From IMG/VR virus record IMGVR_UViG_2548876794_000003, positions 114,961-178,960 of that record: a stretch of DNA of 64,000 bases. One strand, 5' to 3'. A program made the position numbers and the translations under genes. The notes below the pieces were generated by a model that made no database searches, was not told where the DNA came from, and was given only the letters and a program-made list of their open reading frames with translations. The stretch is from a virus. Its lineage: Duplodnaviria > Caudoviricetes. The first letter of the stretch is position 1. Each line of letters opens with the position of its first letter. Below are positions 1 through 64,000 of this stretch, piece by piece.

Positions 1-9
1 TTACCAATC

Positions 10-2655
10 ATGTTCAACGGTAGAATCGCTGAGGTGTCAGCTGGCGAAACAGTTGAAATTGTAGGGCAAGGTGATGGTGTTGAGCTATTAAATACGATTT
101 CCGTTCAAGAGTCTAAGTCCCTTAACCAAGGGAACGGTAAGCTATGGCTGTACTCAAAAGTAGATGGCCAACAAACGCCAAAAGAAATATTCGACAAAGT
201 ACTATGTAATAAAGGTACGATGACGTCGCGCGCCTTAGATACTGTATCGAATGGTTACTATCGTTCATACAATGAATACGGAATTGTTCACTTTGGCGAT
301 CCACGTTACAACGTTATATTCGAAAATGGTGAGCCATCACAAAATATCTATGAAGCGACTACTCAACCTAAATGGTATAAGGAGCAATCTAAATCAGCAG
401 AATATGGTTTAGAGGAGCCACCACAGATCAGCATCATGACGCGTGGACGCACTGTATGGGATGTTTTCAACATCGCAGCAAGTATGTCACCAGATTTCAT
501 TTTGGGTATCGCACCGTTCGGTATGCGCTCTACACTGTTCCATGGGCATCCGCGTTTCTATTATGCTTACGATTACATAAAAGATAAAGATGGAAACTAT
601 TTAGAGAAGCGTAAACCATACCAACAGTTCCACTTGGTTTCCTCTATGAGCGACATTATTCAAAACAATATTACTGCGACATCTCAAAGCATTGCGACAA
701 ACGCAGTGGGACTGTACAAAACAAAATTCACAATTGGTGAAAAAGAATATACGACTGGACGACTATACGTTGACTGGGACATCTACCCAGAGAACCAGCG
801 ATCTATCGTACACGATACAGGGATTGTTTACAAAGGTAACAATGAAGTCGTATCAAAAGTTCCGTTAATAGGGGACGCAACAAAAGTAATTACTGACCGA
901 GCGTTCGAGTTGCCAAGTGGCGGTAAAGAGAAGGCATGGCGTTCAACAGCGAAAGCATTGAAACATTCTATTCACGATATGTATACAGGGAACATTATGC
1001 TTGTCGGGAATCCTTCTATTAAGCCGCATGACCGTTTAGAAATTTATGATACATATGAAAACATTAGTGGACCAGTGTTGGTTGAATCAGTAACGCACAT
1101 TATGAGCCCGGATACAGGGTTTGTTACAGACGTTGTTCCGGATTGTATTGCGGTAGTGGATGACCGCTTCGAAACAACAACTCAATCTTTCGTGAACAAC
1201 TATATTAAACCAGCAATGATTTATAGCGCTGTAACAACAGCAATCGCGGCTTCAACAAAATCCTTGTCACCGACGCTATCTCTGTTAAAATCATTTTCGA
1301 ATTCCAAAGGTAAGCAAGTAAACTACGTTGCAAACACTGTGAAGAAACTGGTTGGTGATACAGATAAGGCAAAGGATGCGAGTAAAGTTTCAAGGAAAGG
1401 ACTGCGCCTATTATATAAAGCATTAAATGCTTCTAAAGGTCAGCTCGGTTCCCTCGGTGCGAAACTTGGGTTAGCCGGCGCTGTTGGTGGACCCGCTGGT
1501 GTTGCTGCATTAACAATTGGTTTCTTTGTCGAATCACTTGTTTCAATGAGTATCGGTTATGCAGTCAACAATAAGATTAAACACTCGCTACGAAACAAGC
1601 AGGTGCTAGAGATTTATCCTATTAAGAAGAATACAAAAGTACTGACTGCAGGGCTTACAGGTCAAATGGGCTTAGTCGTTGGTTCACCGACTGGTGGTAT
1701 GAACGGTGTTGTCGATAGCGTTGTAGACTGGTTCGTTAATAAGAGCGATGATAACCGCGTATTCGGTTTTGTTCGTGACACATTATTAGCAGACGATACA
1801 GTGGATTATATGCGTACTGTTGGGCGACGCAATGAAAACCTACTTCAAGATGGTACAGAATATGCGCGACAAAGCGTATTGAACAATGTACTTGCATCTG
1901 TATCGAAAGAAGAAGCGGTTCAGATTGGTGGCCTTTCCGAGTTACTGCTAACGCCACGCGTCACACCTCCTCCAAGTAGTGAGTCAACGGAGAGAAAAGC
2001 TAATTACGCAACGAAGATGAATGCAAAATATACAGAGCTAAAAGTAGACACTATTACCAACATGGGCGGCAATGCGAAGATTGTTGAGAATATGGTAGCA
2101 ATCGAAGGTAGTGAGAAAATCGCTGACTACTTAGATCGTGGTATCTTGCGTTTAATTTGGAAAGAAAAATTTAACGATGAAAAAGATTACGAATACGTGA
2201 CGTTTGAAACCAAAGGTGAGAACCTTAAAGCTCGTTGTATCAAGACAGTTGTTTCTAAAAAGAACAGCGATACTTGCTACGATATTCCATTCCTGCATCC
2301 AGATGCATTAGCACTTCTCGAAGAAATTTGTCGAGTGGCCAGTAACTATTTGGTATCAGATGAAGAGGAAAAGAACGAGAACGAATCAAACTTCATTGCA
2401 GTAACATCTGCAGCGCGTATCGGTGATACGGAGTCACTGGCGTCAACAGGGCTATCATTCAAGTTGGAATCAAGCGGAAAAGATTCTAAAACAATTCTAA
2501 AAAATGTGCTACATGACATTAATGAAGCGATGGATGAAATGCGAAGCGTTGGCTTACCAGACGACTACATTATCTTTGAACGTACAAAAATTAAAGAAGG
2601 CGGGATTTCTGAGGACGGTAAGAGTGTCCGTATAACAGTTTACCCACCAGCATAG
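10..2655 (+). CDS. Baseplate hub / tail protein (late control D / gp27-like) with a C-terminal extension; probably 5'-truncated by the window edge
   Basis: Hub C-terminal signature GNPSIKPHDRLEIYD...VESVTHIMSPDTGFVTDV; lies directly upstream of the spike and wedge genes; frame is open to the window start. Confidence 0.65.
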   Translation: MFNGRIAEVSAGETVEIVGQGDGVELLNTISVQESKSLNQGNGKLWLYSKVDGQQTPKEIFDKVLCNKGTMTSRALDTVSNGYYRSYNEYGIVHFGDPRYNVIFENGEPSQNIYEATTQPKWYKEQSKSAEYGLEEPPQISIMTRGRTVWDVFNIAASMSPDFILGIAPFGMRSTLFHGHPRFYYAYDYIKDKDGNYLEKRKPYQQFHLVSSMSDIIQNNITATSQSIATNAVGLYKTKFTIGEKEYTTGRLYVDWDIYPENQRSIVHDTGIVYKGNNEVVSKVPLIGDATKVITDRAFELPSGGKEKAWRSTAKALKHSIHDMYTGNIMLVGNPSIKPHDRLEIYDTYENISGPVLVESVTHIMSPDTGFVTDVVPDCIAVVDDRFETTTQSFVNNYIKPAMIYSAVTTAIAASTKSLSPTLSLLKSFSNSKGKQVNYVANTVKKLVGDTDKAKDASKVSRKGLRLLYKALNASKGQLGSLGAKLGLAGAVGGPAGVAALTIGFFVESLVSMSIGYAVNNKIKHSLRNKQVLEIYPIKKNTKVLTAGLTGQMGLVVGSPTGGMNGVVDSVVDWFVNKSDDNRVFGFVRDTLLADDTVDYMRTVGRRNENLLQDGTEYARQSVLNNVLASVSKEEAVQIGGLSELLLTPRVTPPPSSESTERKANYATKMNAKYTELKVDTITNMGGNAKIVENMVAIEGSEKIADYLDRGILRLIWKEKFNDEKDYEYVTFETKGENLKARCIKTVVSKKNSDTCYDIPFLHPDALALLEEICRVASNYLVSDEEEKNENESNFIAVTSAARIGDTESLASTGLSFKLESSGKDSKTILKNVLHDINEAMDEMRSVGLPDDYIIFERTKIKEGGISEDGKSVRITVYPPA

Positions 2656-2666
2656 GGGGAGAGAGA

Positions 2667-3041
2667 ATGGCTGGATTAAAAGATGTTATCGCCGAAAAGG
2701 TTGTATCTCCGTCGGTAAATAACGATGGCGACCATTTTGATGTAGAAGCAATTGTCCGCACGATTGATGCAGACAATAGCACATGTACAATTACATATCG
2801 AAGCGGTGAAGGCCGCGTCACACGAGAAAACGTATTAGTTCGTACAGGTAGTGTTTCGTTCGTTGATTGGTTCCCAGAGAAAGGAGACCATGTTCTCGTC
2901 AACATTATCAATGGGCGACATTATGTAACTGGCCCTTCTGATGCAGAGTTACGAGGGATGCGAAAACGGAATTCGCGACTGGTCAGTGACATTTATAGCG
3001 ACATGACAGCGACAGATACACAAGGGGGTTGGATTTTCTAA
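2667..3041 (+). CDS. Baseplate spike OB-fold protein (gpV / gp5 N-terminal-like)
   Basis: WFPEKGDHVLVNIINGRHYVTG matches the P-x-x-G-D-x-V-x-V gpV OB motif; RBS GGGGGAG; follows the hub gene. Confidence 0.6.
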   Translation: MAGLKDVIAEKVVSPSVNNDGDHFDVEAIVRTIDADNSTCTITYRSGEGRVTRENVLVRTGSVSFVDWFPEKGDHVLVNIINGRHYVTGPSDAELRGMRKRNSRLVSDIYSDMTATDTQGGWIF

Positions 3042-3742
3042 TGAGCGAAAAAGCAGCAGCCGTCACGTTTGTACAGGATGAACCAGCAGACAATATTATT
3101 GCTCGAATCAAAAAAGATGTAGCAAACACGAAAGCGGGAATCGAGAAGGCACTCGTCAACAAGCATTCGAAATCGAGCTTGACTATGCGTAAGGATGGTG
3201 ACATTACGCTAGCTTCAAATACGAAAACGCAAATGAAGCTAGATAACAATGGTAAATCCTTAGATATGACACAAGATAGCATCACGATTGCAAATAGACG
3301 AACGCTTGAAGTTGAGGATATTGTTATCAACAATCATAAAATGAATCCTCAATTGCTTTACTATACGGATGGCGTGTCAGTATTAAACGATACAGATAGC
3401 TACGTATCGTCGTTTCAGATGCAGGGGAGTGTCATGGTGAAAGCGTGGGATGCTTCGAGCAAAAAGTATAAGATGATTCGCAGACCTGCGAACCTATCTA
3501 TGTTTAGCCCACGTTTAAATACAGCACAGATTCCAAAAGACCTTGGTGTTCCAGACACAGTGAAAGAGCAGATCGAGGAAATTGCTTCTACAAATCAAAG
3601 CGTATCGAACGCAAGTGAAGTAGAGAAAGCAACAGATGGCACAGCTGCAGTGGAAACAGTTGCGGATAAAAAATCCAAAGTAGCTGATTCAATCGTAGCT
3701 AAAGGTGGCACACCCATTACAAAAACAGCTAAGAAACAATAA
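3041..3742 (+). CDS. Spike beta-helix-like baseplate protein
   Basis: TAATG stop/start overlap with the previous gene; SSLTMRKDGDITLAS-type beta-strand repeats typical of gpV/gp5 needles. Confidence 0.45.
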   Translation: MSEKAAAVTFVQDEPADNIIARIKKDVANTKAGIEKALVNKHSKSSLTMRKDGDITLASNTKTQMKLDNNGKSLDMTQDSITIANRRTLEVEDIVINNHKMNPQLLYYTDGVSVLNDTDSYVSSFQMQGSVMVKAWDASSKKYKMIRRPANLSMFSPRLNTAQIPKDLGVPDTVKEQIEEIASTNQSVSNASEVEKATDGTAAVETVADKKSKVADSIVAKGGTPITKTAKKQ

Positions 3743-3751
3743 AATTGTAAC

Positions 3752-3779
3752 AAAAACACCTCAAAATGGGTGTTTTTTG
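3752..3779. terminator. Bidirectional intrinsic terminator between convergent genes
   Basis: AAAAAACACCtcaaaatgGGTGTTTTTT hairpin with A- and T-tracts on either side. Confidence 0.7.
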
Positions 3780-5555: not shown

Positions 5556-6335
5556 ATGAAAACAGCAAGTACGATTAAACAAGATATAAAAAATAACATG
5601 AACGTTGATTTCTACGAAGGTAGCTTTATCGACAACGTTCTTAATGCTATTGCCGACTCTGAGGAGAAGGTATACGAAGAAGTAGATAAGGCCCGTAGCC
5701 CTTACTTGTACAGTCAAGTTTTAAACTTCGCAGACAATTTAGATGACCTTGGCCAGATGTACAACCTCGTTCGCGAGGAAGGGGAAAGCGACCAAAACTA
5801 TCTGTACCGCATTATTAATTGGAAGCTAATTTCAGAAGCAGGGAATAAAACAGCAATTCAAGCATCAATCATCAATCCTGTGAACGCTTCGTATATGGAG
5901 TATCTTCCGTTAACAAACGGCGCCAATACTGGTTCTATCTATATCGTACCTAATGATTATGAGGTTGAAACGAAGTTAGCCGCCATCGAAGAAGCGAAGA
6001 AGAAAATCGAAGCCGTTGTTTCACCAGGGATGTACATGGAGTATGTTATTCCAGACATGGTTGCGATTGATTTAGACATTAAAATCGAAACTAGCAATTC
6101 AAATCAAACACTGCTAAAATCAGCGGTGAATTCGGCAATACGAGAGTATGTCAATAACATTGCACCAAATGATTACTTAACAATCGGTGCGCTAAATCGT
6201 ATTGGCATTAACTTAGCTGGTGTGGATTATTTCAATGTAACGCAAGTGTACATTGGCGGCAGCGCAACAAAGTCGAATAAAAACTTACAAGAGATTGACA
6301 AGAAATTCGTACTGAATCTCGTCTCTTGGGATTAG
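5556..6335 (+). CDS. Baseplate J-like wedge protein (short form)
   Basis: NLDDLGQMYNLVREEGESDQNYLYRI and SAIREYVNNIAPNDYL motifs typical of baseplate J. Confidence 0.7.
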   Translation: MKTASTIKQDIKNNMNVDFYEGSFIDNVLNAIADSEEKVYEEVDKARSPYLYSQVLNFADNLDDLGQMYNLVREEGESDQNYLYRIINWKLISEAGNKTAIQASIINPVNASYMEYLPLTNGANTGSIYIVPNDYEVETKLAAIEEAKKKIEAVVSPGMYMEYVIPDMVAIDLDIKIETSNSNQTLLKSAVNSAIREYVNNIAPNDYLTIGALNRIGINLAGVDYFNVTQVYIGGSATKSNKNLQEIDKKFVLNLVSWD

Positions 6336-6346
6336 GAGAACCATAT

Positions 6347-9300
6347 ATGTTAGACAAGAAACAATTGTATGAAAATGCGATAATGCATTTCCCTCGACGC
6401 TCTGACATTCGTAAACGAAAAACCAGTAACGGTGCCAAGCTACTTCGCAGCATCTTAGAAGAAGCAGACGACTTCAATCAAGCCATCGAAGAGCTACGTG
6501 CTTCATTCTTTGCTATTAACTACAAGGGGAAAGCAGACGAACTTCTATTGAACTTATCAATGTTTCCGGTTGGATCCGTTGCAGACGACATTCAGATGGA
6601 CGGTTTCACACAGGCTCTTGATGAAAACCACTTCATGAATGATGCGCAGACATTCATCGTTGAAGATGGCTTTTGCTACCTACATCGTCAAAACACGCTC
6701 TTTGTTTCATATCGAGCAAACGGTGATACATATACGGCTCAGTTAAAAGATATGACGTACTGGAACATCATTGATGAGTTTGCGATGATTTCTTCTATTG
6801 ATCGCTTTGATAATGAGTCGAACGAAGAATTACTTAATCGCGTTTTCCTAAGTTATCGTAACGTGACAAATAGCTCTGCAATAGGATTGAAGAATGCCAT
6901 TATAAACGCTGTCAGTAATCACGTAGAAATCATTCCAGATGATATTGTCATTGAGCCAATGAACGAACAAAACTTACATACATACTTCGATGAAATCGAA
7001 TTGATTGAAAACCTTAGCTTTATTAATAAAGATGTGCTGCGTCAAAAAGTATGGGGGCGCTCAAAGTGGGAGCATCCTTTTGCTGGTATTGAAAACGTAC
7101 CGAGTGAATGGGATGTAGTCATGCCAGCCGTACAGGATGGGGTAGGCGACATTCGTGCCACTTACGCAAAAGACATTTCAGATTCTTTATTCAAAAGAGC
7201 TGTCGTCAATACATATAACAAATCAGAAGCTATGATTTCAAACTACATGCTTTCGAACAATATTGACGTTGATATTAACTTAGGCCTAACGAAACTTTCA
7301 AACCGGTTAAATTCTAAAAAGGTAAGTTACAAAGTGTCCGCAGAAAAAGTGACGGACGTTTCTAACGATGTTATTCGACTGAACAATGAATATAGCGGCA
7401 GAAGCGTCGGTCACTTGCAAGACATCGTTGCAAACTTAACGGACTACCGAGCGAACATTACATCAAATAATCTACTTGAAGCTGGTCATGATTATCGTGT
7501 CACTGTAGAAGCGGAAGGTGACTATGACGCATTAAAAGTAGAACAACTTGAACTACTAAACAGCGATGGCTCTAAACGTTCATATCTACAGCCGAATGCT
7601 GGCTTTAAAAAGGACAGTGACGGTAATTACATTCCTGACAACATTTTGAAGCGAATCAACTCTACAGAAGATATGTACAATGTACAGAACTTCGTGACAA
7701 CATTAGATGGCATTGAGTTAGAGGACACAGCAAACAAAGGCCATGCTGAAATTTCTATTGAAGGAGCAAGTAACAAATACCTTATCATCAAAGAAAGCTG
7801 CCAAATGGTTTCGTTCACAGGTAACAATGCGTTGCTTAAGGCAGAAGGTTTCACGTTAACGAATGGCATGTTAACATCTCGAAACGAAAGTGACCGCATT
7901 ACGATTGAAATGACTTGTCGTAATATGCAATTCGCTGTATCAAGTGGGCGCATTAATTATGATTTGTACGTGAATGGTGAAAATGTAGCTTCCGAATCAA
8001 ACATAACTACCGACGATGTAAAATATTCGTTTGATAAGCCAACTAAAATTAAGATGGTTATTCGCCCAGTCGGTACGCAAAGCACAATACTTTCAAACTT
8101 TATGTACAACAATTATGAATTGAGCATGAGCGTTGATGGGGCGAGCCTTTATCACAACAATACATTCGGTCACATTATTTACGAAGCGGATCCGGGCGCC
8201 AAGTTGATTTTAGACATGTCGTGCAAAACCGGATTCTCACCAGTTATTGAATACATACATATTGGCGGTATCGTCAAAGGCAAAAAATACGTTGTTAGTA
8301 ACATTATTCCGAAAGAGGATAGTCTACTTCTGTTAAAAGCAGATGGCGCAATTACCGTAGAAGATTTAACGGATGGTCGCGTTATTGGTCACGAATCAGA
8401 TATGGTACTTGCACTTAGAAACAATGGTGCAACGCCGATGAATGTAAAGCTAAATATCGCGAACTATACAGACTTCTCAATTGAAAATTACACTATCAAT
8501 CGCATCTTTACAGCAGGTGTTGAAAACTATTACTTATCGCTTCAACCAGGGGCGAGCATTTCATCGTTTATTACGAATGGTACATATAAAAAATCCGTCT
8601 ATGAAAAAACTATTAAGGACGTATTGAACACTCAAAACGTTTACGTATCAAGTTACCAGAATGGATTCTTTGATGGCATCTCTGGTCACGAAGTTAAGCT
8701 GGTGCGCGATATGTTTTCAGATGCACCAACGTTTAACAGTTGTGAAATCATTTCAAAAAGCAACGTTCGTTATAACTTTATGGCAACGGCTAACAGTAGC
8801 ATTTCAGTTGAGACAACTTACTTCAAACAAGATTTTGTTCAAATTGGTTGTGTAGCAATTGCTGGAGAACAGCATATTTGCTATAACACGCAACGTGTAC
8901 TTAGCTCTATCACAGAGAATATACAGGTAGCGCGCTTATTCTATCCAGAACTAGAAGCGAGCCAACTGTACTGTTTCTATATCGAAACGTCGACAAGTGG
9001 CGCTAAAGTAACGTTCATGGACACAAATATTGGCACAAGTTATATCGGTGAATATGTAAAAATTGAATTGGATAATTTTGCATCGGACGAATCAAACTAC
9101 ATAAAAGAATCAGTCGTGGTGAGACGGAATGCCGTACTATCAAATGTAATGTACCTAGATCGTACTTTCGTTAAGGAAGGCAAAGAAATTGATTTAGCGG
9201 AATATATGATTTCTCCACCACAAGGATTAGAGGTCGTTTATGCAAACGGCACAGAACAAGCTTCTGAATCATTTTATGCGGAGCAAGATGGCTTCAACAA

Positions 9301-11188: not shown

Positions 11189-11189
11189 G

Positions 11190-51181: not shown

Positions 51182-51233
51182 GGGTTTTCTTTTTCGGTAC
51201 TATATACACGAAATCATAACAAGGAGTGAGACG

Positions 51234-51812
51234 ATGGCAAAAATAGAAAGCAAAGTTGTAGGGCTGTTCGTTAATCTAAATGGCGTTTTCGTCAAAACAG
51301 AATACAGCAACAATCAATTGAAGTTGGCATTGGACAAGGAAGCGACCGAACTAAATGGCGTGAACGTTTATCACCAAGAGGGCTATTTCATTTCACAGTC
51401 GGTAAAAGTAGCAGGCTCATTCAAAGGCTATGAAAAAGTAATTACGACATTGGCGAATAAATATGGCACTGTCAATGTGTACACAGCAACCTCAAGAAAT
51501 GGTTTAACGTGGTCACGATGGAAACAGGTTGGCGCTGATAATGTCATCATCGAGCCGAACGAATTATACATACGAATCAAGATTGAATTAGCTGCAGCTA
51601 ATTCTGAAACGCCTGGCACATTAGCGAACTTTACAAGTGTAAAGGATGTAAAAGATGATCAGTACGTAACAATCAATAGTGGGCTGACGAGCAAGAGTAA
51701 TATTACGTTCATCCCTGACATTGTAGATACAAAGTCAATTCCCGAAGGAAAAATCTTTTTAAAAAAAATTAATCGCGAAGATTTTAAAGTGCTTACAAAT
51801 ATTTCACTGTAA
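51234..51812 (+). CDS. Putative structural protein
   Basis: AAGGAG RBS; GGTACTATA upstream; TATSRNGLTWSRW...YIRIKIEL; EGKIFLKKI tail. Confidence 0.55.
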   Translation: MAKIESKVVGLFVNLNGVFVKTEYSNNQLKLALDKEATELNGVNVYHQEGYFISQSVKVAGSFKGYEKVITTLANKYGTVNVYTATSRNGLTWSRWKQVGADNVIIEPNELYIRIKIELAAANSETPGTLANFTSVKDVKDDQYVTINSGLTSKSNITFIPDIVDTKSIPEGKIFLKKINREDFKVLTNISL

Positions 51813-51819
51813 GGAGTGA

Positions 51820-53853: not shown

Positions 53854-54608
53854 TGGTTACAATGAAATCACCATTTTCAACAGCTGTAGTATCTAGTGAT
53901 GAACTTACGGTGACTGGCTCTGGTGGCACTACATCTGCTTTTGCTAATAAGCGTTTTACAAATGGACGCCGATACTTCGAAGTAAAAGTTATCACAAATA
54001 ACGGCACGATCCACGTTGGATTAGCACAAGAGTCTACTTACTTAGATACAACGTCATCTAGCTCGCTTAATCGTACATACCTTACAAACAGTGGAGTTGC
54101 GTATTCAACAACTGGTAATGTTTCTAATGGTTATACAAGCTCATTTTCTACAGATACAGTAATCGGTGTTTACATGGATTATGAAAATGGAAAAATCGGT
54201 TTCACCTATAATGGTGTAGATAAAGGGCAGTTATCCACAGGCAACATTGCAGATGGAATCGCTCGAGTCCCTTATGTTTCGATTTTATCCACAAGCACTG
54301 GGAAGGTTGTATTTGCTTTTAAAGAAGCAGATTTCGTATATGAGCCACCTATGGGCTACAAGGCATACGAAGATACTAGTGAGCCAAAGAGCGTTTATTT
54401 AGAAAGTACTCGCAATGAAGATACTTACTATACTTCTAAGTGGGGATCGCTATATGCTATTCCTAAGCAAGAAATGCTCGAAGCAAAAGTAGGTACACAA
54501 GAAATTGTGTTTTCTGAATTACTTCAAACGTCTGCAAGTAAGTTTAAAAAACTGAAAGAAAATCTATTCATAGCATCTATTGATAAAAAAAGTTTGTCGA
54601 TTAGATAG
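53853..54608 (+). CDS. SPRY-domain protein
   Basis: GRRYFEVKV...HVGL...DTVIGVYMDYENGKIGFTYNGVDKG...PYVS...FVYEPPMGYKAY. Confidence 0.8.
   Translation: MVTMKSPFSTAVVSSDELTVTGSGGTTSAFANKRFTNGRRYFEVKVITNNGTIHVGLAQESTYLDTTSSSSLNRTYLTNSGVAYSTTGNVSNGYTSSFSTDTVIGVYMDYENGKIGFTYNGVDKGQLSTGNIADGIARVPYVSILSTSTGKVVFAFKEADFVYEPPMGYKAYEDTSEPKSVYLESTRNEDTYYTSKWGSLYAIPKQEMLEAKVGTQEIVFSELLQTSASKFKKLKENLFIASIDKKSLSIR
54231..54293 (+). promoter_or_regulatory. Two perfect DnaA boxes inside the SPRY CDS
   Basis: TTATCCACA at 54231-54239 and 54285-54293. Confidence 0.6.
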
Positions 54609-54611
54609 TTA

Positions 54612-54640
54612 AGGCGGGGGAAACCTCGCTTTTTTATTTT
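54612..54640 (+). terminator. Intrinsic terminator
   Basis: AGGCGGGGgaaaCCTCGCTTTTTT. Confidence 0.65.
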
Positions 54641-54646
54641 GCAAAG

Positions 54647-54681
54647 TTATCCACAGCTATTTCAAAAAAAACTGTGGATAA
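54647..54681. promoter_or_regulatory. Inverted pair of DnaA boxes at the origin
   Basis: TTATCCACA (54647-54655) and TGTGGATAA (54673-54681). Confidence 0.85.
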
Positions 54682-54780
54682 CTTTTTAAAGATTGATATA
54701 AAAATTACAGGTTATAGATTATATATATATTATTTATATAAAGATTAATAGACTTAATAGATTTAATAACCTTTAACAAA
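54682..54780. other. AT-rich DNA unwinding element of the plasmid-type origin
   Basis: Very AT-rich tract with (AT)n and GAT(T)TAATA/GACTTAATA repeats between the DnaA boxes and the iterons. Confidence 0.7.
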
Positions 54781-54814
54781 CTTCTAAACCACTGGTATGA
54801 CTACGTTCGCGAAG

Positions 54815-54950
54815 GTTGAGAGCGCAAAATATATTCAGTTTGAGCGCTTTATATATTCAACTTAAGCGCAAAATATATTCGGTTTGAGCGCAAAATATAT
54901 TCAGTTTGGGCGCAAAATATATTCACAGAGAGCGCAAAATATATTCACAA
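54815..54950 (+). repeat. Six iterons, core AGCGCAAAATATATTC, with an exact 22-bp period
   Basis: Cores start at 54821, 54843, 54865, 54887, 54909 and 54931. Confidence 0.92.
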
Positions 54951-55069
54951 AAAACCTCAGTTATTATATGAATATCCCAACCTTCCCCCTATATACGTAG
55001 GCATTTCAGTATATATAAGAGAGGAGAATCAACCTATTACCTATAAGCAACATTATCTAATAACAATTA

Positions 55070-55615
55070 GAAGCGCAAAATGTATTCACAGAGAGCGCAT
55101 TGCATTACACATAAAGCGCTCAAGTCTTGTTAGAGCGCAAAATATATTCAGAGAGGGCGTAAAATATATTCAATATGAGCGCATTGTGTTTTAGATAATG
55201 CGCTCATTCGATTTATAGTGTAAAATATATTTAATTAGCATTTTCGCGTCGTTTTGGCATACTATTATCCTTGAATCATAGCGGTATAGATGCGTCTAAA
55301 AGATTGATATATAGGCATTTTAAGCATCTATCTACGTGAATGAAGAACTTAAAGCGCAAAATGTATTCACAGAGAGCGCTTTTGCTTCACCGTAATGCGC
55401 TCAACTTCTGTTAGAGCACATTATATATTCAGCTACAAGTGATTTTACTATTAAGTAAAACAAATACTGTAATGAAATTGAATATATTTTGCGCTCTAGA
55501 ACAAGATAAGCGGGGATTTCAGTATGAAAAAGGCTACATATTGTGTTTTATGGAAATTCCATCCTATTAAGAAAATGACGTAAGCGTAAAATTTGAATAC
55601 ATTTTGCGCTCTAAA
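55070..55615. repeat. Auxiliary iterons, GAGCGC...GCGCTC inverted repeats and inverted iterons over the rep promoter
   Basis: Iteron cores at ~55072, 55134, 55156, 55353; reverse copies GAATATATTTTGCGCTC (~55480) and GAATACATTTTGCGCTC (~55595) next to TATAAT at ~55618. Confidence 0.8.
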
Positions 55616-55667: not shown

Positions 55668-56867
55668 TTGAGAAGTAATAAAAAGAACGAGCTTATGATT
55701 AGCAATGATAATGCAGTTAAAAAAAGTAATGAATTTTCTATGGCGAAGATGAGCGAAAGCCTTACTTTAAATCAGATGCAATTACTTATCTATACAATAT
55801 TCCGTACGCAGCAAGATTCAAAAGTCACTGAGTTTGCACGAGTAGATTTTGAAAATAAGTTTGAATTAAGTAGGTACCAGTCCGCACAGGCGAAAAAAGA
55901 TGCTAGAAAATTATTGAAGTTAGATTTTTCAACGGAAGATTTAGAGAAGGACAGTTTCGAATACCTAAATGTATTTCAAAAAATCAGTTACGACAATGGG
56001 AAGTTTTCTTTCAAATGGACAGAAGATATGCTTCCTCATATAACAGGCCTAAAAGAAAAATATGTAATGAACGATTTAGCTATCACAGCACAGTTCAATA
56101 GTAGCTTTTCATGGAAACTGTACGACTATTTAAAAGCTAATTATGGCAACTGGTATAAGCAATTATCTAAAGAAGCTACTCTTCGATTGTTTGGTGTAGA
56201 AGATCGCAAAACATATCAAAACAAAACATTCTCATTTAAGCGTGGTGTGCTAGATGTAGCAGTAGAGGAAATCAACAAGTATACAGAACTCGATGTTAGT
56301 TATGAAGATGTAGTTACGAAAAGAGCAATCACTGGTTTTATCTTTAAGTGGTCAGTAGGCAACGTGAAAAATTCCGCTTCGAGAAAACAGCGTGATGAAA
56401 TCAAGATATATGTTGATACGATGGAAGCAGACGCAATAAAATATCTTAATGAAATTACGCCAGAAGATTTACCGGAGCTTCAAGAGGTCATCCGCAACAT
56501 TGCCGAATATAGAGGGTATGCAGATGAATCTTTTACTATGACTAAAGAGCAAGCTAGTCGTGCGTTACTTCGCATTAAACAATTATTTAAGCAACTGCAA
56601 AAACTTATAAAAGGCGATAGAAAATCACCAGTTTTCTACAATTGGCTAGAATATGATTCACCAGAAGAACAAGAAGCTGTAGAAGCTGCTGAGGAAGCAC
56701 GTATGGCTCGTTTAGAAGCTGAGAAAGCTTTAATTGATGCAGAAAATAAAGAAGGTAATTTTAAAGTCATTGCAATGGGCAAAGCGAAAGCGTTGGATGA
56801 AATGGCTACAAAGTTAGAAGCAATCGCAGAAAACAAAGCTCGAATTGCTGTTAGCGCTTACCAGTAA
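55668..56867 (+). CDS. rep: Plasmid replication initiator, Rep_3 (RepB-type) family
   Basis: VKKSNEFSMAK...LTLNQMQLL, SSFSWKLYDYLK, FKRGVLDVAVEEINKYTEL, PVFYNWLE; iteron array directly upstream. Confidence 0.9.
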   Translation: MRSNKKNELMISNDNAVKKSNEFSMAKMSESLTLNQMQLLIYTIFRTQQDSKVTEFARVDFENKFELSRYQSAQAKKDARKLLKLDFSTEDLEKDSFEYLNVFQKISYDNGKFSFKWTEDMLPHITGLKEKYVMNDLAITAQFNSSFSWKLYDYLKANYGNWYKQLSKEATLRLFGVEDRKTYQNKTFSFKRGVLDVAVEEINKYTELDVSYEDVVTKRAITGFIFKWSVGNVKNSASRKQRDEIKIYVDTMEADAIKYLNEITPEDLPELQEVIRNIAEYRGYADESFTMTKEQASRALLRIKQLFKQLQKLIKGDRKSPVFYNWLEYDSPEEQEAVEAAEEARMARLEAEKALIDAENKEGNFKVIAMGKAKALDEMATKLEAIAENKARIAVSAYQ

Positions 56868-56909: not shown

Positions 56910-56942
56910 GCGGAGACGATATTGTCTCCGCATTTTTTATTT
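56910..56942 (+). terminator. Intrinsic terminator after rep, preceded by the GGTACTATA motif
   Basis: GCGGAGACgatattGTCTCCGCATTTTTTATTT. Confidence 0.65.
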
Positions 56943-56955: not shown

Positions 56956-58071
56956 ATGGTGAACTATACATTGAATACAGTTGGCAATCCTAATATATCA
57001 AGAGATTACGAATCAGAAGTGATGGTCAATGACATACTTAAAGTACAGTATAGCTACAACAATGTGATGTCGTGGATTGTACCAAGCGACGGTATCTACA
57101 GATTCGATTTAACGGGTTCTGTAGATGAAACTCTCAGCGCTAGTGGTTACGCCGGGAATGTTATTTTCGAACGAGAGTTAAAGGCAGGGATGATTGCTTA
57201 CATAACGCTATATGGAATGGGCGGAGGTGGATCAGGCGGCTACGCTGGTGATGGAAGTGGATCCGCGTACGCTTCTTATCGTAATGGCGCTGCAGGGAAA
57301 GCTGGCGGAAAGGCTAGTTACCTTTACTTTTCTGATAATGTAAATGACAAAATTATCGCTGGAGGAGCTGGCGGTCGTGGCGGCGGAGGTGGGCATGGAT
57401 GGGGGGCCGCAGCTGATGTAAGATACGGAGGTACTGGTGGCATTGGTGGCAACGGCGGAGAGAGCCGTTGCGCTGGAGCTTCTGGAGAAAGCGGATATTC
57501 GAAAGGTTCCTACTCTAGTGGTGCATCAGGAGTTTCAGCGCCGATAAGCAATAACGGCGGAACTGGAGGCGGCGCCGCTATCTATCTGAATAGCAGTGGA
57601 ACCGCTTATGACGGTACTAGAGGGGGATCTGGCTTTTACTCTAATCAGTACGATGGTTCTGGTGGTGGCGGTGGTGGTGGTGGCGGTTATTATAGTTCAA
57701 ACCACATGGGTTCTGGCGGTGGCGGTGGCGGTGGGGCAGGTGGTAAGAATGCTGTTAGCTCGACCTACAAACTTATTAAGAATGGCACCGCAACAACCAA
57801 AGAAGCAGCTCGCTTAATCATCACAGTAAGGGAACTGCAAAAAGAAAAGATTCTTGTACTTTTTAAAGGAGGTACGATACTAGCGCCTTCTATTAATAAA
57901 GATGCTTGGAATATCGTCGAACCAGAAAAGATTAATAAAGTGTATGCGAACAAATTTAACAATGCTTATTCTGTCAATAGTAAAACTATGTCGAGTAATT
58001 TGACTGCTTTAAAACAAGGCATCACGAATATTCGCATCAACAAGGGAGCTGAGCGTGATGAAGGACAGTAG
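56956..58071 (+). CDS. Glycine-rich domain virion/fibre protein
   Basis: WIVPSDGIYRFDLTG, IIAGGAGGRGG and multiple GGGGG runs (polyglycine-II type domain). Confidence 0.7.
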   Translation: MVNYTLNTVGNPNISRDYESEVMVNDILKVQYSYNNVMSWIVPSDGIYRFDLTGSVDETLSASGYAGNVIFERELKAGMIAYITLYGMGGGGSGGYAGDGSGSAYASYRNGAAGKAGGKASYLYFSDNVNDKIIAGGAGGRGGGGGHGWGAAADVRYGGTGGIGGNGGESRCAGASGESGYSKGSYSSGASGVSAPISNNGGTGGGAAIYLNSSGTAYDGTRGGSGFYSNQYDGSGGGGGGGGGYYSSNHMGSGGGGGGGAGGKNAVSSTYKLIKNGTATTKEAARLIITVRELQKEKILVLFKGGTILAPSINKDAWNIVEPEKINKVYANKFNNAYSVNSKTMSSNLTALKQGITNIRINKGAERDEGQ

Positions 58072-58756
58072 GAAATTAAACACGAGTGGCTATGCGGAGG
58101 GGAGAAAGACGCATAGGATGTACAACGGAATTGTTGCGACAGTAGACCGCATTTATAGCGGAGGAAGTTACTCTGTCACAGGACTGTTCAACGGTTCGCC
58201 TTCATCGAATTCCTCTGCTGGCTACTGGCTTACGAGCAGTAGAACGGGCGAGAATCAAATAGAAATAGATTTCTCCGCATACAGTGGCGACTTTAAATTG
58301 GATGGATTAAAGATTGCTAGTTTTTGTGCGAATGATCGTAAGGCATCTAGCTACGCCATCTATGTTTACACGAAGGATGGAAAGAGCTCTTACGCAGCTC
58401 ATAACATAACTTCCACAGAAAATAGCTTAGGTTACTTCGTGCCATTCACGATTTCAGCAAGACGGGTTTCTAAAATCGTTATTTTAATCTGGAGTGATTC
58501 ATCTACGAGGTGGGGCGCAGCGCTAAACGAGATTGAAATCTATGGCGGTGAAGATACGTCACGTTGTCTTACACTAAAAGCAAATGGAAAGGTTTATTAC
58601 TTTTCTAAAGCAGGTACGTTAAAAGATTTTAACCAAAGCGTTGTAGAGACAGATGGTTCGAGGGCATATACCATATCCTCGAAAACAGATTCTACGAAGA
58701 AAATAAGTTCACTGGATGTGTGCAAAAAACAAGGAGCTAAAAAAGTAAAAATATAA
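58058..58756 (+). CDS. Discoidin/galactose-binding-like adhesin module
   Basis: LFNGS...YW...IEIDF...LNEIEIYG. Confidence 0.6.
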   Translation: MKDSRKLNTSGYAEGRKTHRMYNGIVATVDRIYSGGSYSVTGLFNGSPSSNSSAGYWLTSSRTGENQIEIDFSAYSGDFKLDGLKIASFCANDRKASSYAIYVYTKDGKSSYAAHNITSTENSLGYFVPFTISARRVSKIVILIWSDSSTRWGAALNEIEIYGGEDTSRCLTLKANGKVYYFSKAGTLKDFNQSVVETDGSRAYTISSKTDSTKKISSLDVCKKQGAKKVKI

Positions 58757-58832
58757 CCGGTCTACTTATCGGTACTATACATATTGAATGGCAATTAGAT
58801 TCACTTACAATACAATGTGAGGTGCATAATGC

Positions 58833-61307
58833 ATGGAGGAAAATAAAGATTTACTTAGCGAAGTTGAAGCTCGCCAGGAAAGCGAAGCAGAAGTCGTAAC
58901 AGAAATAACACCGCAACTTAACGGTGAAGATAAAACAGCTGCAGAGGTGACGCCACGTTTTTCGGATACTAATGTAACAGCTGTTGAAGCAGTTGTGCGT
59001 CGTTCTTCTATTAACGAAATACATACAGAAGTGACAATCGCAGCGGTGCCAACTTCTATCGAAGAAAGTACAGATGCGTTGGTAGAAGTTCGAAAAAGCA
59101 ATTCGATTGCAGTTGATATAGAACTTGATGTAACCGAGAAGCCAATCGTTTTATCGAATGGCCAGAATGATGTGCTGACAGAAATTACAATTGCGCCACG
59201 TACTCAAGATGAAGCAAACGATGTTCCAAGTGAAGTGGTTGTGCAACGTCATGCAATTGACGAAACAGAAGTAGAACTTGAAGTACTTGAACCGCAACTC
59301 AATGATATGCATAACGACATTAATGTCGAAGTGACGCCGCGTATTCGTGTAAGCACCACAGCAGACATCGAGACAGAAATGGAAGTCCATGCTTACGTGA
59401 TGAAAGATGCACCAATAGAGTTCATCGTACAGCGTTCTAGCCAAGAAGATGCCGCAGCAGAAATCACCATTCAAGGTTATGGATCCGCCGCATTAACTAC
59501 GGAACTACTTGTGCAACGACATAGCCAAAGTGAAACAGAAATGGAGTTAGTTGTTTCAACGCCGAATACACGTAGCGATAAAGAAACAGCCGTAACAATT
59601 CCAGCGCATAACTGGGCTTATGGTGCCTACAATTTAATGATGCCGCCAAGTGTGAATGTACGCTTAGAAGCTGTACGCGATGCATTTGCTCGTAAAGAAG
59701 AAGGCTACACACGACTGAATTACGGTGAAGCGTCAACAATCCAATTGAAAAAAGTAGGAGACCTCGAAAGTGAAACCTTTGTCGGGTTCGACATTTCTTC
59801 ATTAGATCCAGCGATGGCTTACACCGAAGCATTTATCGAGCTGTCGTACAGCGGAATTATTCCAGAAGGTACAGAGCTTGCGTTAAATGCAGTGCGTGAA
59901 GCATGGGGCGAGCTTTCATTAACATGGGAGAACCGTCCATCGAATGAGCCACTTGTATATGACAATTTCGTTATTGATGAAGCTAACAACAAGATTCGCT
60001 ATTACATCACAAACTACTTGAAAAAGTGGGTGGTCGGTGCCGTTGAGAATGAAGGTTTCCGTATTTACTATGGCGCAAATAGTTCAGAAGGCGCGGTGTT
60101 CATGCGTTCTCGTGAAAACAAAGAGAAAGCATTCCGTCCGGTACTGTCAGTTACCTACGTGGACCCGAATATCAAAAATGTTGGACGGAAGAATGTAGAT
60201 GTTGAATTGAATGTCCTTCAAAAATCAACAAGCCGTATCTATACAGTTGTCGAACCTTCTGCCGTATTCTCTAGCAAGCTATTGCCAACAGAATTATATG
60301 TCCACCAAGTTGACGTACCGCTTGAAAGCGACATCTTAACAGAAGTGACAATTTCAAAACCATTCGTCGAAACGAAAATGGTTGTACGTCGTAGTGCTAC
60401 GGTGGTAGGGGACGTTGAAGTAACACCTCGATTAAAAACAATACGTGAGCGTTCTGCAGAATTCACTGTTAGCCGTAAACAAACAGATGCAGAAATTTAT
60501 GTATTCCATCGTGCGGGCACAGATGCAGAGATCGAAGTACGTCAACGTACAACAAATACTATGCCTATTGAATTTGCAGTAAGCAGACTAGCCACAGATG
60601 TTGTATTAACAGCTCGTCAAACTGTTAAGAATGTACCGGTAGAAGATTTAGTATTCCATGGTGGGGTGGACGCAGAAGGAAAACCGCTGCCAAGACCGGC
60701 TGGTGCTGGCGGTGCAACGCTTGTCGAAGTGACAGCGAGCCGTAAACAAATGCTTGCTTCTATTGAAGTCCTTAGCCCAACTTTAATGAGCGACCGCATG
60801 GTTGTATTAAATGTTGATCCAATGGCTAAATCTAGTTTAGATGCAGAGATCAGTGTAGTTCGACCATCGACAGATGTTGAAGTAGAACCTCGACTAGCTC
60901 GCCATTCAAACGTTGATGCAGAAGTCGTTGTATCAAAAAGTTTTGTTGGCGCAGAAGTATTTGTAACACGACCAACTACATACGTTGAATTTATCAGCAA
61001 AGCATTGCGACAATCTGACGTAGAGACAGAAGTAACAGCTATTCGTAAAGAAAACTACGTTGAAGTAACGGTTCCGTACGATGGCTTTTCTGATATTGAA
61101 ACAGAGATTTTACCGCGAGTACTGCGAGCAAGTGATGTTGAAACGTACATCGAAGTCATGTCATCTGACGAAGCTACACTAGAAACAGAGGTAGCTGCTA
61201 CGCGTACTGGTATTCTGACAGAGTTCTATCCGCGTGTTCCAGCAATTTCTGTGACAGAAGCAGAGATTACAGTAGCAAGCAAAGGTGCTTACGCATTTAT
61301 CATGTAG
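58833..61307 (+). CDS. DNRLRE (CBM96-like) domain protein flanked by beta-strand repeats
   Basis: RDAFAR...NYG...FVGFDISSL...WGELSLTWENRP...SREN...RPVLSVTY; ~15-aa repeats of (S/D)-V-E-T-E-V-x-V on both sides. Confidence 0.7.
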   Translation: MEENKDLLSEVEARQESEAEVVTEITPQLNGEDKTAAEVTPRFSDTNVTAVEAVVRRSSINEIHTEVTIAAVPTSIEESTDALVEVRKSNSIAVDIELDVTEKPIVLSNGQNDVLTEITIAPRTQDEANDVPSEVVVQRHAIDETEVELEVLEPQLNDMHNDINVEVTPRIRVSTTADIETEMEVHAYVMKDAPIEFIVQRSSQEDAAAEITIQGYGSAALTTELLVQRHSQSETEMELVVSTPNTRSDKETAVTIPAHNWAYGAYNLMMPPSVNVRLEAVRDAFARKEEGYTRLNYGEASTIQLKKVGDLESETFVGFDISSLDPAMAYTEAFIELSYSGIIPEGTELALNAVREAWGELSLTWENRPSNEPLVYDNFVIDEANNKIRYYITNYLKKWVVGAVENEGFRIYYGANSSEGAVFMRSRENKEKAFRPVLSVTYVDPNIKNVGRKNVDVELNVLQKSTSRIYTVVEPSAVFSSKLLPTELYVHQVDVPLESDILTEVTISKPFVETKMVVRRSATVVGDVEVTPRLKTIRERSAEFTVSRKQTDAEIYVFHRAGTDAEIEVRQRTTNTMPIEFAVSRLATDVVLTARQTVKNVPVEDLVFHGGVDAEGKPLPRPAGAGGATLVEVTASRKQMLASIEVLSPTLMSDRMVVLNVDPMAKSSLDAEISVVRPSTDVEVEPRLARHSNVDAEVVVSKSFVGAEVFVTRPTTYVEFISKALRQSDVETEVTAIRKENYVEVTVPYDGFSDIETEILPRVLRASDVETYIEVMSSDEATLETEVAATRTGILTEFYPRVPAISVTEAEITVASKGAYAFIM

Positions 61308-61320
61308 CATATTGTATTCA

Positions 61321-61350
61321 AAGGTCTACACTTTATTGTGTAGGCCTTTT
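61321..61350 (+). terminator. Intrinsic terminator (copy 1 of a duplicated hairpin)
   Basis: AAGGTCTACACtttattGTGTAGGCCTTTT. Confidence 0.75.
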
Positions 61351-61459
61351 ATGAGTCTAAAACTTTGAGCAAATGTAAATACCTGTATACAAAACATCCC
61401 CAGTAAATTACAATAAAATAGAAAAAAATACAACTATTTTATTAAATAAGGAGATTAAG

Positions 61460-62746
61460 ATGCCTAGATGTATTCACTGTAATCATTTTAATGAAAATAA
61501 TAATAAGGTTTGTTCAAAGTGTGGACAAAGATTGAAAGGAATAAATTTAGATTATTTTTCACAAAATAAAAAAGTGCAACCTAGTAGACCGATAATTAAA
61601 GCACCGCCGCTTCCAGAGCAATATCGTTCAAACACGCAATACCAAAGTAACTATAATGGCAGTAACAATGGTCGTAATAATAAGAAAAGAAAAATTCGTA
61701 GTGGCAGACTAGGAGCAATAATTATTGGAGTGGCTATACTTTTTATAGCGTTCGTTTTTGGCCCAGCAATTTATGGGAGTCTCACTAAAACAGATGCGGA
61801 GAAAAAAATTGAAAAGTCGCTTACAGATAAAGAGAAAAAGGAATTCGAAATTTATGTTGAGCGAGCAGACGATAGCTATGATGACGATGATTATCAAAGC
61901 TCAAAAAAATATTTAAACAAAGCTCTTAAAATAAATAAAGAGTCTACGCTTGCTCGCAAAAGATATGAAAAAACTATTGCGAAATTAGATAAACAAAAAA
62001 TCAAAGAAGCTACGAAATTATCTAACGATTACTATTTTGAAAAAGCTATCAAATCTTTAAAAACCGTCAAACCTAAAACTAAATATACAAAAGAAGAAAA
62101 TAAGTTTTACGATGACGCTAAGAATGAAATTAACTATGTATTATTAAAAAAAGGTGACTACCTTAAAGAGCAGGGCAAGCTTTCAGATGCTAAGGCTACT
62201 TACAATCGAATGTATGCGGATAGCTACAAATACGACGACGGTCAGGACAGAATAGAAGAAATTAATAATCCAGAGCCTTCTAGCAATTCGAATTCTACTG
62301 AGACGGTTGTAAGCTCTAAACCCGACGAAAAAGTTGAGGATCCACAGATCGCACTAAACAGACGTATAGACAGTACTACAACAGTAGAATACTGGAAACT
62401 GCAAAAATCTCCAGGTAAATACAAGGGGCAAGATGTTTATATGAGTGGGGAAGTATATGATATTCAAGAAATAAATAATAAGACGTTAATGCTTTTAAAC
62501 GTGGGTGAGGATGACGATGGCAAGGTTCAAACTGTGTTGGCTGTATATCCAAAAGGCACTGACATAAAAGAACATGACTATGCAGAAGTTTACGGAAAAG
62601 TCATAGGAGGATATGCACAAGATTCAAGGTACATTTATGACTACTTAGGAAGCCAATATTATATATACTACAATAACAATAGTAATTTTTCACAGTCGCC
62701 AATACTAGAAGGATTCTATATATATGCGAATGATAAGGTTCAATAA
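61460..62746 (+). CDS. Membrane-anchored protein: Zn ribbon, TM, helical/TPR-like region, C-terminal OB-like domain
   Basis: CIHC...CSKCG; LGAIIIGVAILFIAFVFGPAIY; PGKYKGQDVYMSGEVYDIQE...AEVYGKV; AT-rich. Confidence 0.7.
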   Translation: MPRCIHCNHFNENNNKVCSKCGQRLKGINLDYFSQNKKVQPSRPIIKAPPLPEQYRSNTQYQSNYNGSNNGRNNKKRKIRSGRLGAIIIGVAILFIAFVFGPAIYGSLTKTDAEKKIEKSLTDKEKKEFEIYVERADDSYDDDDYQSSKKYLNKALKINKESTLARKRYEKTIAKLDKQKIKEATKLSNDYYFEKAIKSLKTVKPKTKYTKEENKFYDDAKNEINYVLLKKGDYLKEQGKLSDAKATYNRMYADSYKYDDGQDRIEEINNPEPSSNSNSTETVVSSKPDEKVEDPQIALNRRIDSTTTVEYWKLQKSPGKYKGQDVYMSGEVYDIQEINNKTLMLLNVGEDDDGKVQTVLAVYPKGTDIKEHDYAEVYGKVIGGYAQDSRYIYDYLGSQYYIYYNNNSNFSQSPILEGFYIYANDKVQ

Positions 62747-62748
62747 TG

Positions 62749-62786
62749 AAAAGACCTACACTTTATTGTGTAGGCTTTTATTTTTC
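62749..62786 (+). terminator. Intrinsic terminator (copy 2 of a duplicated hairpin)
   Basis: AAGACCTACACtttattGTGTAGGCTTTT. Confidence 0.75.
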
Positions 62787-62896
62787 CATGAAATTTTTAT
62801 TTTTACGATAGCTATTACATTACAATTAAATATATTTATGTGTATAATACGTTAAACCTATCAATTAGATAGGTTTATTTAATTTGATATGGAGGG

Positions 62897-63466
62897 ATGA
62901 TTTTGACACAAGAGAAAAGAAACAAAAGAAAAACTTATTTAAAAGAATTAGACGAAGTAAGAGCTTCAAAAAGCGAAGACTTTGAAGCTAATTTTAACAC
63001 CTTCTTTGACAGCTTAGCTGTAGATGATGTTAAGCTAGAAACCATGATAGACATTTCAGAAGCGAAAAGTCTGGAGTGGAATGGAAGTAGAGATGTATCT
63101 TTAACAATGAGCGGCATAGGTATATCAATGCTTATTTCGTTTGTTCTTGCGAGTGGTGATAGCTTGTATAGTTTCCATGTACTTATTAGCGGTTTACTCA
63201 CAGGAGTATTTGCATTTCTTTTCTTTTATTCTGCAAACGAGAGAGATAGCTATGCCAATTTAGCAATAGAACTTAAAGATAGATATAAAGAAAAATGCCT
63301 TTCGGATAGCAAAGGAACATTATCTTTTGCGGAGATTAAGCAAGCTATTGACGCCAAAGAAACAGCGCTCGCCAAAGCACTTGCAGAAGCAGAAGCCAAA
63401 GTAGCAGAAGCAGAAGCCAAAGTAGCAGAAGCAGAAGCCAAAGCAGAGCTTAATAACTCAAACTGA
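62897..63466 (+). CDS. Two-TM membrane protein with a C-terminal coiled coil
   Basis: Two hydrophobic helices at about aa 68-110; AEAEAKV repeats; own TATAAT promoter and GGAGGG RBS. Confidence 0.65.
   Translation: MILTQEKRNKRKTYLKELDEVRASKSEDFEANFNTFFDSLAVDDVKLETMIDISEAKSLEWNGSRDVSLTMSGIGISMLISFVLASGDSLYSFHVLISGLLTGVFAFLFFYSANERDSYANLAIELKDRYKEKCLSDSKGTLSFAEIKQAIDAKETALAKALAEAEAKVAEAEAKVAEAEAKAELNNSN
63383..63443 (+). repeat. 21-bp tandem repeat, about 3 copies (AEAEAKV heptad)
   Basis: GCAGAAGCAGAAGCCAAAGTA x2 plus a partial copy. Confidence 0.85.
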
Positions 63467-63498
63467 TTTTTCCTTTATGGTACAATGTGAAAAAGGTG

Positions 63499-63686
63499 GT
63501 ATGTACATGACACATTCAGCTAACAAAAACGATAGGACACCAGACGTATTACCAGATTGGTTCGTTGACAACCAAGTGTCTGAGGAGCCTGTTGAACGCG
63601 ATTTAACGGATGAAGAGTGGAAAGCAGAAAGAGCAAAAGTATTGGACCTGTTAGGTTTGATAGATGAAAAAGAAGAGCTGAAATAG
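63499..63686 (+). CDS. Small acidic hypothetical protein (start uncertain)
   Basis: AAAGGTGG RBS; LPDWF...DEEWKAERAK; followed by a terminator. Confidence 0.5.
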
Positions 63687-63770
63687 GCTCTTTTTTCATG
63701 CGTATAAATACCTATTTTTGCTAGTTCTCATAATAAATCTTTACGCGAATTAGCAAAGCAAAAAAACAAA

Positions 63771-63796
63771 AAAGACAGCTCGTCGGCTGTCTTTTT
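63771..63796. terminator. Bidirectional terminator
   Basis: AAAGACAGCtcgtcgGCTGTCTTTTT. Confidence 0.7.
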
Positions 63797-63810
63797 ACTT
63801 TCAAATGTAT

Positions 63811-63999
63811 CTATTTGTTAAAGCTTTTTCTAATCCAGTTTTCAAGATCAGGTAGCGTAGTCTTTAGTGTGATACTAAGAAGTGTTTCTGTGCCCATATC
63901 AGATGTAATGAATCCCAAATCTACTGACACTGTAAAAAAGTATATCGTTTTGTCATGGGGATATTGTTCATAACTAAATTCTATTCCTGGAGAGTCTAC
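63811..63999 (-). CDS. 3' end of a minus-strand gene running off the window
   Basis: Open frame ...VDSPGIEFSYEQYPHDKTIYFFTVSVDLGF...NWIRKSFNK* converging on the terminator. Confidence 0.55.
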   Translation of the reverse strand, partial: VDSPGIEFSYEQYPHDKTIYFFTVSVDLGFITSDMGTETLLSITLKTTLPDLENWIRKSFNK

Positions 64000-64000
64000 A

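Follow-up and report, generated by a model that had tools for sequence, protein, structure and literature searches.

An enlarged Rep_3 iteron replicon in a jumbo Bacillales phage suggests maintenance as a low-copy plasmid prophage

Why would a jumbo phage that encodes a replisome of its own also carry the initiator and origin of a plasmid? We address this question for IMG/VR virus record IMGVR_UViG_2548876794_000003 (178,960 bp; GC 39.5%), and in particular for its last 64 kb (114,961-178,960), hereafter the window; positions are those of the window unless given as record positions. A preliminary description of the window had proposed a phage that persists as a plasmid and switches to its own replisome for lytic growth. 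To judge from portal identities and gene order, the window is the right-hand part of a contractile-tailed Bacillales phage of about 250 kb in the 0305phi8-36/pBtic235 group. We consider it probable that this phage is a temperate-type jumbo myovirus of that supergroup which its host carries as a low-copy plasmid prophage. The virion gene set, the replicon, a ParA gene and the lack of any integrase found speak for such a life cycle; the plasmid state is one that we infer from sequence.

As far as sequence can tell, the replicon is complete, with a Rep_3 initiator, 22-bp iterons, DnaA boxes and an AT-rich stretch. The initiator (55668..56867, plus strand; 399 amino acids, with an alternative ATG start at 55695) has WH1 and WH2 domains that match Rep3_N (PF01051, E 3.4e-18, 66.8 bits against a Pfam cut-off of 22.4) and Rep3_C (PF21205, E 1.8e-9, 38.1 bits against a cut-off of 21.1). 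Matches to RepM and RepE models are weak (RepE E 7e-8, far below cut-off). All 14 iteron copies are confined to 54816-55610: six tandem iterons (54816..54947, plus strand), six dispersed direct copies (55072-55431) in a duplicated 281-bp unit (55067..55434, plus strand), and two inverted copies (55479-55495 and 55594-55610; 55479..55610, minus strand) located 189 and 74 bp upstream of rep. Allowing up to three mismatches, the 17-nt iteron core has just one weak, three-mismatch match (17375) elsewhere in the 178,960-bp record. Interleaved with the dispersed iterons are three palindromes (55093-55121, 55176-55205 and 55374-55402) built on arms that copy the iteron's GAGCGC end. The two inverted copies are candidate autorepression sites; no promoter was called at them by a consensus scan.

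The DnaA boxes complete this picture. Four exact boxes (TTATCCACA; 54231, 54285, 54647 and, on the minus strand, 54673) form a cluster spanning 54231..54681 that holds every exact box of the window and four of the five in the whole record, all within the same 1.4 kb as the iterons (54231-55610). Two of them lie within the 3' end of a SPRY gene and the other two form an inverted pair past its terminator (54611-54632). Between boxes and iterons sits a candidate DNA-unwinding element, an AT-rich stretch at 54650..54799 with a GC content of 18-19%, versus 39.5% for the genome. Terminator-like hairpins bracket the rep cassette, and the one that closes it lies at 56910..56931 (plus strand). The combination of Rep_3, 22-bp iterons and DnaA boxes first described for this window is therefore borne out by domain scores above cut-off, 14 iterons and four exact boxes.

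The element that carries this replicon is a complete phage, on the evidence of its virion gene set and of its colinearity with a 238-kb, terminally redundant relative. The capsid, terminase, sheath and partition genes that the preliminary description had proposed to seek beyond the window are present in the same record, which encodes a large terminase, portal, protease-like protein, major capsid (head) protein and tail sheath, as well as a PrgP-like ParA. Gene by gene, record positions 66-159 kb run colinear with 16-124 kb of the relative, G005, from head genes through tail and baseplate genes to primase, helicase, RecJ and DnaE; G005 has direct terminal repeats. Genes of the record lie mostly on the minus strand from 1 to 65 kb and on the plus strand from 65 kb onwards.

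The portal protein places this phage among known relatives. Its homologues reach 45-50% identity in IMG/VR phages of 238-265 kb and 37-42% in phages 0305phi8-36, Edson, vB_BceM_WH1, KLEB27-3 and Moorella MTATph1. Homologues of similar identity occur on circular 200-260-kb plasmids of B. licheniformis, B. paralicheniformis, B. thuringiensis (pBtic235 type) and Cytobacillus oceanisediminis, and the B. licheniformis plasmids have already been classed as phage-plasmids (PMC7969092). The suggestion that the window might represent a poorly described lineage did not hold, since portal identities of 37-42% and gene order assign it to the 0305phi8-36/pBtic235 group. At the nucleotide level, searches against phages and plasmids gave no match, and a portal-profile search of genome contigs returned just three contigs from metagenome-assembled genomes and no isolate. 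Separately, DnaE defines several hundred relatives. Among its homologues, two of 57% identity are encoded by contigs of 235-237 kb that bear the names Bacillus spizizenii and Bacillus atrophaeus and are likely to be further jumbo phage-plasmids in B. subtilis-group isolates.

The replicon sits in a variable part of the genome that has no counterpart in G005. To its left is a variable block of tail-fibre-like and adhesin-like genes (44194..54608, plus strand; phrog_5302 tail protein, Mtd_N, a minor-tail PHROG and SPRY), with tail-protein PHROG matches at 45432-48044 and 51096-51812 and an Mtd_N match at 48546-49115. To its right are the last genes of the plus-strand arm (56956..63686, plus strand), including a CBM96 protein at 58833-61307 (PF24517 E 4.5e-14; phrog_11333 E 1e-32). 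From 44.2 kb to the end of the window no gene has a G005 homologue, and the right-end proteins have no close relative in IMG/VR.

This setting raises the question of whether a plasmid fragment was misjoined to the phage during assembly: 7 kb separate the cassette from the end of the record, which is of metagenome type, and the 20 kb flanking it is without G005 homologues. We rejected such a chimera, which we regard as extremely improbable. On both sides of the cassette, many open reading frames (ORFs) match phage families (tail and minor-tail PHROGs, Mtd_N, SPRY, CBM96), and tetranucleotide composition is uniform. The 9-mer GGTACTATA, expected 0.31 times, occurs four times in the record, always on the plus strand (45904, 51196, 56897 and 58771), so that its sites flank rep on both sides. 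At least 33 further Logan/ENA contigs, the longest reaching 160 kb, also encode Rep at 99-100% identity. In length, the longest contigs with Rep agree with those of the portal and RecJ clusters, and a 248,626-bp NCBI contig is the longest recorded for identical Rep, portal, capsid, ParA and RecJ proteins alike. Rep is, by this distribution, a stable part of the phage. As an observation in their own right, the GGTACTATA sites fall within 13 kb, three of them in intergenic spacers, and each is followed by T or C and then A; they may be a promoter element specific to the variable block.

We next consider the phage replisome. The claimed set of enzymes was matched by domain searches and comprises (i) an archaeo-eukaryotic primase (AEP)-type primase with a PriCT_1 domain (30885..31913, plus strand; PF08708 E 3.5e-13, with a weak PF01896 match), (ii) a DnaB-type replicative helicase in two frames (31940..33102, plus strand; DnaB_C matches on both halves), (iii) a RecJ exonuclease (37262..38959, plus strand; DHH, DHHA1 and RecJ_OB, all above cut-off), and (iv) DnaE, the Pol III alpha subunit, also in two frames (40520..44001, plus strand; PHP, DNA_pol3_alpha, finger and HHH_6 domains). 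A DUF1064 protein is encoded in the same region, and the opposite arm of the record encodes NrdEF along with a CHC2 zinc-finger protein of the DnaG type. The "own sigma factor" of the preliminary description stood only in part: the protein at 35973..36989 (plus strand), 43% identical to a G005 protein, is a sigma-like or ArpU-like transcription factor whose Sigma70_r4, sigma70-ECF and phage_arpU matches are all sub-threshold.

Two of these enzymes are split by single-base deletions, as is the portal, so the breaks are not confined to replication genes. The helicase has lost 1 nt in the A-run 32494-32499, DnaE has lost 1 nt near 40772-40778, and the portal (record 76740-76830) lacks an A in an A-run, giving 545 + 177 amino acids here versus 723 elsewhere. 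An intact 387-amino-acid helicase, identical at the junction to the fused product, is present on about 30 other contigs, and an intact 1,160-amino-acid DnaE is found elsewhere at 99% identity. Apart from this record, only its 248.6-kb NCBI twin has the helicase and DnaE breaks; elsewhere, intact forms occur at 99-100% identity. Three record-specific one-base deletions, two of them in A-runs, suggest homopolymer or base-calling errors. We therefore rejected a disabled lytic replisome, or domestication, given the intact 387- and 1,160-amino-acid forms elsewhere and the equally broken portal. Programmed -1 frameshifting at the in-phase A_AAA_AAG of the helicase was likewise rejected as a general mechanism, since the helicase is intact elsewhere.

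With a phage replisome in hand, one may ask whether Rep_3 and its iterons are simply the phage's own initiator and origin, used for early theta replication in lytic growth and not for prophage maintenance. Lambda O with ori-lambda is the comparison case. Rep_3-like proteins do form PHROG families annotated as phage replication initiators (phrog_4402), so that a phage could replicate by means of such a protein. Transcription of the cassette runs the same way as that of the neighboring phage genes, and no other origin-binding initiator was recognized in the replisome block, where several ORFs are without matches. We nonetheless judge this explanation unlikely. None of the five related 238-265-kb phages searched, all with the same primase-helicase-DnaE block, has a Rep_3 protein, which makes Rep accessory to the replisome. 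The nearest homologues of Rep are all plasmid initiators; neither cultured phages nor IMG/VR hold a close relative. Consensus DnaA boxes, of which there are four, and surplus control iterons characterize a host-dependent, copy-controlled replicon, as is typical of F, P1 and pPS10. Finally, a clear-plaque mutant of pBtic235 without repA still replicates lytically (PMC9700832), a result that also sets a direct precedent for the reading of two separate replication systems here.

Where did the replicon come from? Small plasmids of Sporosarcina, Desemzia, Psychrobacillus, Carnobacterium, Planococcus and Lysinibacillus encode the initiators nearest to Rep, which are 44-52% identical to it over residues 2-328; these plasmids are 3-26 kb in size, with one of 81 kb, and similar Reps also occur on short metagenome contigs. 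At 16 of 18 homologous loci, three or more tandem 22-bp repeats lie beside rep. Small Rep_3 plasmids such as Sporosarcina pA38H4, Psychrobacillus pPB01 and those of Planococcus thus resemble the phage in having tandem 22-bp iterons upstream of rep and, sometimes, inverted copies at the promoter. They differ in scale. Their Reps are about 330 amino acids long, versus 399 in the phage, which has a C-terminal extension of approximately 70 amino acids that the plasmid homologues lack. Iterons number 2-5 in their compact origins, at -120 to -220, and an exact DnaA box is absent from all 17 loci examined for it, whereas the phage has 13-14 iterons over 800 bp and four boxes. By this comparison the origin in the phage is enlarged. 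We infer that rep-ori was acquired specifically in this lineage, from small theta plasmids of Planococcaceae-type Bacillales, and was enlarged after capture. In the Rep phylogeny called for by the preliminary description, run with 17 sequences, the phage Rep falls in an unresolved basal polytomy, so neither donor nor direction of transfer is established. One relative deserves separate mention: on a 13-kb plasmid of Desemzia incerta (NZ_CP126129.1; 1-1368 and 1992-3008), the gene of a homologous Rep (52% identity) directly adjoins phage genes for the head-tail connector, head closure and tail, and this plasmid could be a small phage-plasmid or satellite.

Such an origin invites the thought that the cassette is passive or accessory cargo, either a recently captured small-plasmid fragment or a device that only interferes with resident plasmids by iteron incompatibility. 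Only rep-ori is common to the phage and the plasmids, no other protein of the phage having a match at the 18 homologous loci; the cassette lies in the variable region missing from G005, and rep has a GC content of 35.5% versus 39.5% for the genome. We hold this to be quite unlikely, as Rep is intact and conserved on the independent contigs described above, the origin is more elaborate than those of the plasmid relatives and not decayed, and a separate ParA cassette is present.

This ParA cassette is encoded in the other arm, 130 kb from rep. The 325-amino-acid protein (record 37508-38485) matches AAA_31 and plasmid segregation protein PrgP (E 7e-60). No ParB-type partner was identified; the 141-amino-acid ORF downstream of parA has no assignable family. 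Just upstream of parA (record 38486-38700), GCATAC/GTATGC hexamers are packed in both orientations, and these repeats are a candidate operator or centromere. Among four of the related 238-265-kb phages that were also searched for other families, three have ParA and two have a tyrosine recombinase. In the 179 kb of the present record, which leaves about 22% of the genome missing, no tyrosine or serine recombinase (integrase or resolvase) was found.

Under maintenance as a low-copy plasmid prophage, Rep monomers would bind the six tandem iterons and host DnaA the four DnaA boxes. Acting jointly, the two would melt the neighboring AT-rich stretch and bring in the host replisome, giving once-per-cycle theta replication. 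The eight further iterons and the three half-iteron palindromes, which lie between the tandem array and rep, would set copy number through handcuffing and rep autorepression, while the PrgP-like ParA cassette would segregate the copies. For lytic growth, the phage would turn to its own AEP primase, DnaB-type helicase, DnaE and RecJ, with no need of Rep.

Several points weigh against this life cycle, in addition to the PHROG families noted above. No CI/LexA-type S24 repressor was found in the 179-kb record, and only one small HTH_3 protein scored above cut-off. Two of the relatives carry virion-type terminal repeats, 0305phi8-36 is lytic with a 6.5-kb terminal repeat (PMC3357382), and ParA homologues are also present in phages regarded as virulent, the BigBertha group (PMC7969092). 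The record is classed as linear and 78% complete by CheckV, with about 70 kb missing, and its 178,960 bp contain no terminal repeat. At its right end it is cut inside a gene, as a minus-strand ORF (63811..63999) preceded by a convergent hairpin runs off the record; the strand of this ORF implies that gene orientation switches again just past the rep cassette. The integrase search covers the 179 kb of this linear record, and closure into a circle and copy number lie beyond what its sequence can show.

The remainder of the window is in large part presumed to be structural. Approximately 45 kb of baseplate and fibre-type genes had been proposed, and a baseplate J protein, tail PHROGs, Mtd_N and colinearity agree with this in part, whereas the large ORFs themselves lack domains or matches in cultured phages. 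We assigned 1-29 kb to structural genes because it is colinear with the related 238-kb phage. In this part only two products are recognizable: the C-terminal 884 amino acids of a 2,724-amino-acid tail-module protein (1..2655, plus strand; record 109441-117615), which matches phrog_20474 (annotated "endolysin", E 3e-81) and is colinear with G005 62369-66385, and a baseplate J or wedge protein (5556..6335, plus strand; PF04865 E 2.4e-5, above cut-off; phrog_6 baseplate wedge). The large ORFs at 6326..28927 (plus strand) stand in structural position and are presumed to encode baseplate and fibre proteins. They are mostly without recognizable domains, the big ORFs of the first 29 kb matching no Pfam domain, and are colinear with G005 70.6-107 kb at 22-33% identity; those at 6326-11188 and 19734-22574 have no match among cultured phages. 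Neither RNA families (Rfam) nor tRNAs (ARAGORN) were found in the window.

Some further features were noted in these regions. The gene at 3787-4515 is the sole sizeable minus-strand gene of the window; it has no family match, lies in a low-GC patch (4001-6000, 34.5%) and may be an inserted moron. Near-identical terminator hairpins at 61322-61350 and 62753-62780 (stem AGGTCTACAC ... GTGTAGGCC) follow consecutive right-end genes. Outside the window, in the minus-strand arm, a 1,987-amino-acid RHS-repeat protein (record 26708-32671, plus strand) shares a CBM96-like segment (25% over 130 amino acids) with the 824-amino-acid protein to the right of rep (58833-61307).

Jumbo and other phage-plasmids are already in the literature, as are their dual replication systems, and this phage is no new category; what is particular is a different, enlarged replicon in a known kind of phage-plasmid. 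It adds a well-resolved, apparently widespread, uncultured example to the few jumbo phage-plasmids known. We tentatively suggest, as a possibility about which we remain divided, that members of the supergroup independently captured unrelated replicons (RepA_N in pBtic235, Rep_3 in Cytobacillus and another Rep_3 here) and that a minimal replicon was rebuilt here for a 250-kb genome. If so, the rebuilt origin would be of the stringent, low-copy type, with 14 iterons, some of them dispersed control copies, together with four DnaA boxes, a lengthened Rep and three half-iteron palindromes. Across this one supergroup the phage core is conserved, but the plasmid replicon is exchanged for others of unrelated families. 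The compact plasmid origin and the enlarged, DnaA-box-rich origin form a pair on which to test how a replicon adapts when it passes from a small multicopy plasmid into a low-copy element of 250 kb.

The replicon logic is that of P1 and F. P1 oriR/RepA and F RepE likewise pair an iteron-binding initiator with DnaA boxes and an AT-rich region, and they too come with additional control iterons, a ParA ATPase that serves partition, and separate lytic replication. The Rep described here has no close sequence relation to theirs, and it serves a Gram-positive host and a genome 2.5 times larger, whose lytic system is a full phage replisome instead of RepL.

Within the supergroup, 0305phi8-36 (218,948 bp) has been described as a fusion of two replicative systems (PMC2147016, PMC6199540). 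It shares with our record a structural arm on which an AEP primase adjoins the DnaB helicase and DnaE, an opposite arm with a DnaG-type zinc-finger protein (PMC2147016), and a portal of 37% identity; it differs in having no match to the Rep of the window (tblastn, phage collection). The experimental precedent is pBtic235 of B. thuringiensis serovar israelensis (235,425 bp; also pAM65-52-3-235K and pBTHD789-2), a proven inducible, low-copy, circular jumbo plasmid prophage (PMC9700832, PMC8026635, PMC6199540). Its portal is about 40% identical. It too is a contractile-tailed jumbo phage genome with its own replication genes and sigma factor, and its phage and plasmid modules lie on opposite strands (PMC9700832, PMC6199540, PMC8026635). 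The relation is distant, with no nucleotide similarity to our record; pBtic235 uses a RepA_N initiator and has no Rep_3, and its plasmid state is known from experiment, whereas ours is deduced from genes. Also comparable is Cytobacillus oceanisediminis pN497-ZHONG (240,207 bp, circular), a member of the same supergroup (portal 39.5% identical) that also carries a Rep_3 protein, accompanied by a single DnaA box and about 11 iterons, each of 22 bp. Its Rep, however, is 25% identical over 163 residues, its iteron sequence is unrelated, and its cassette lies among the recA and thyA nucleotide-metabolism genes and not among fibre genes, so that it looks like an independent capture.

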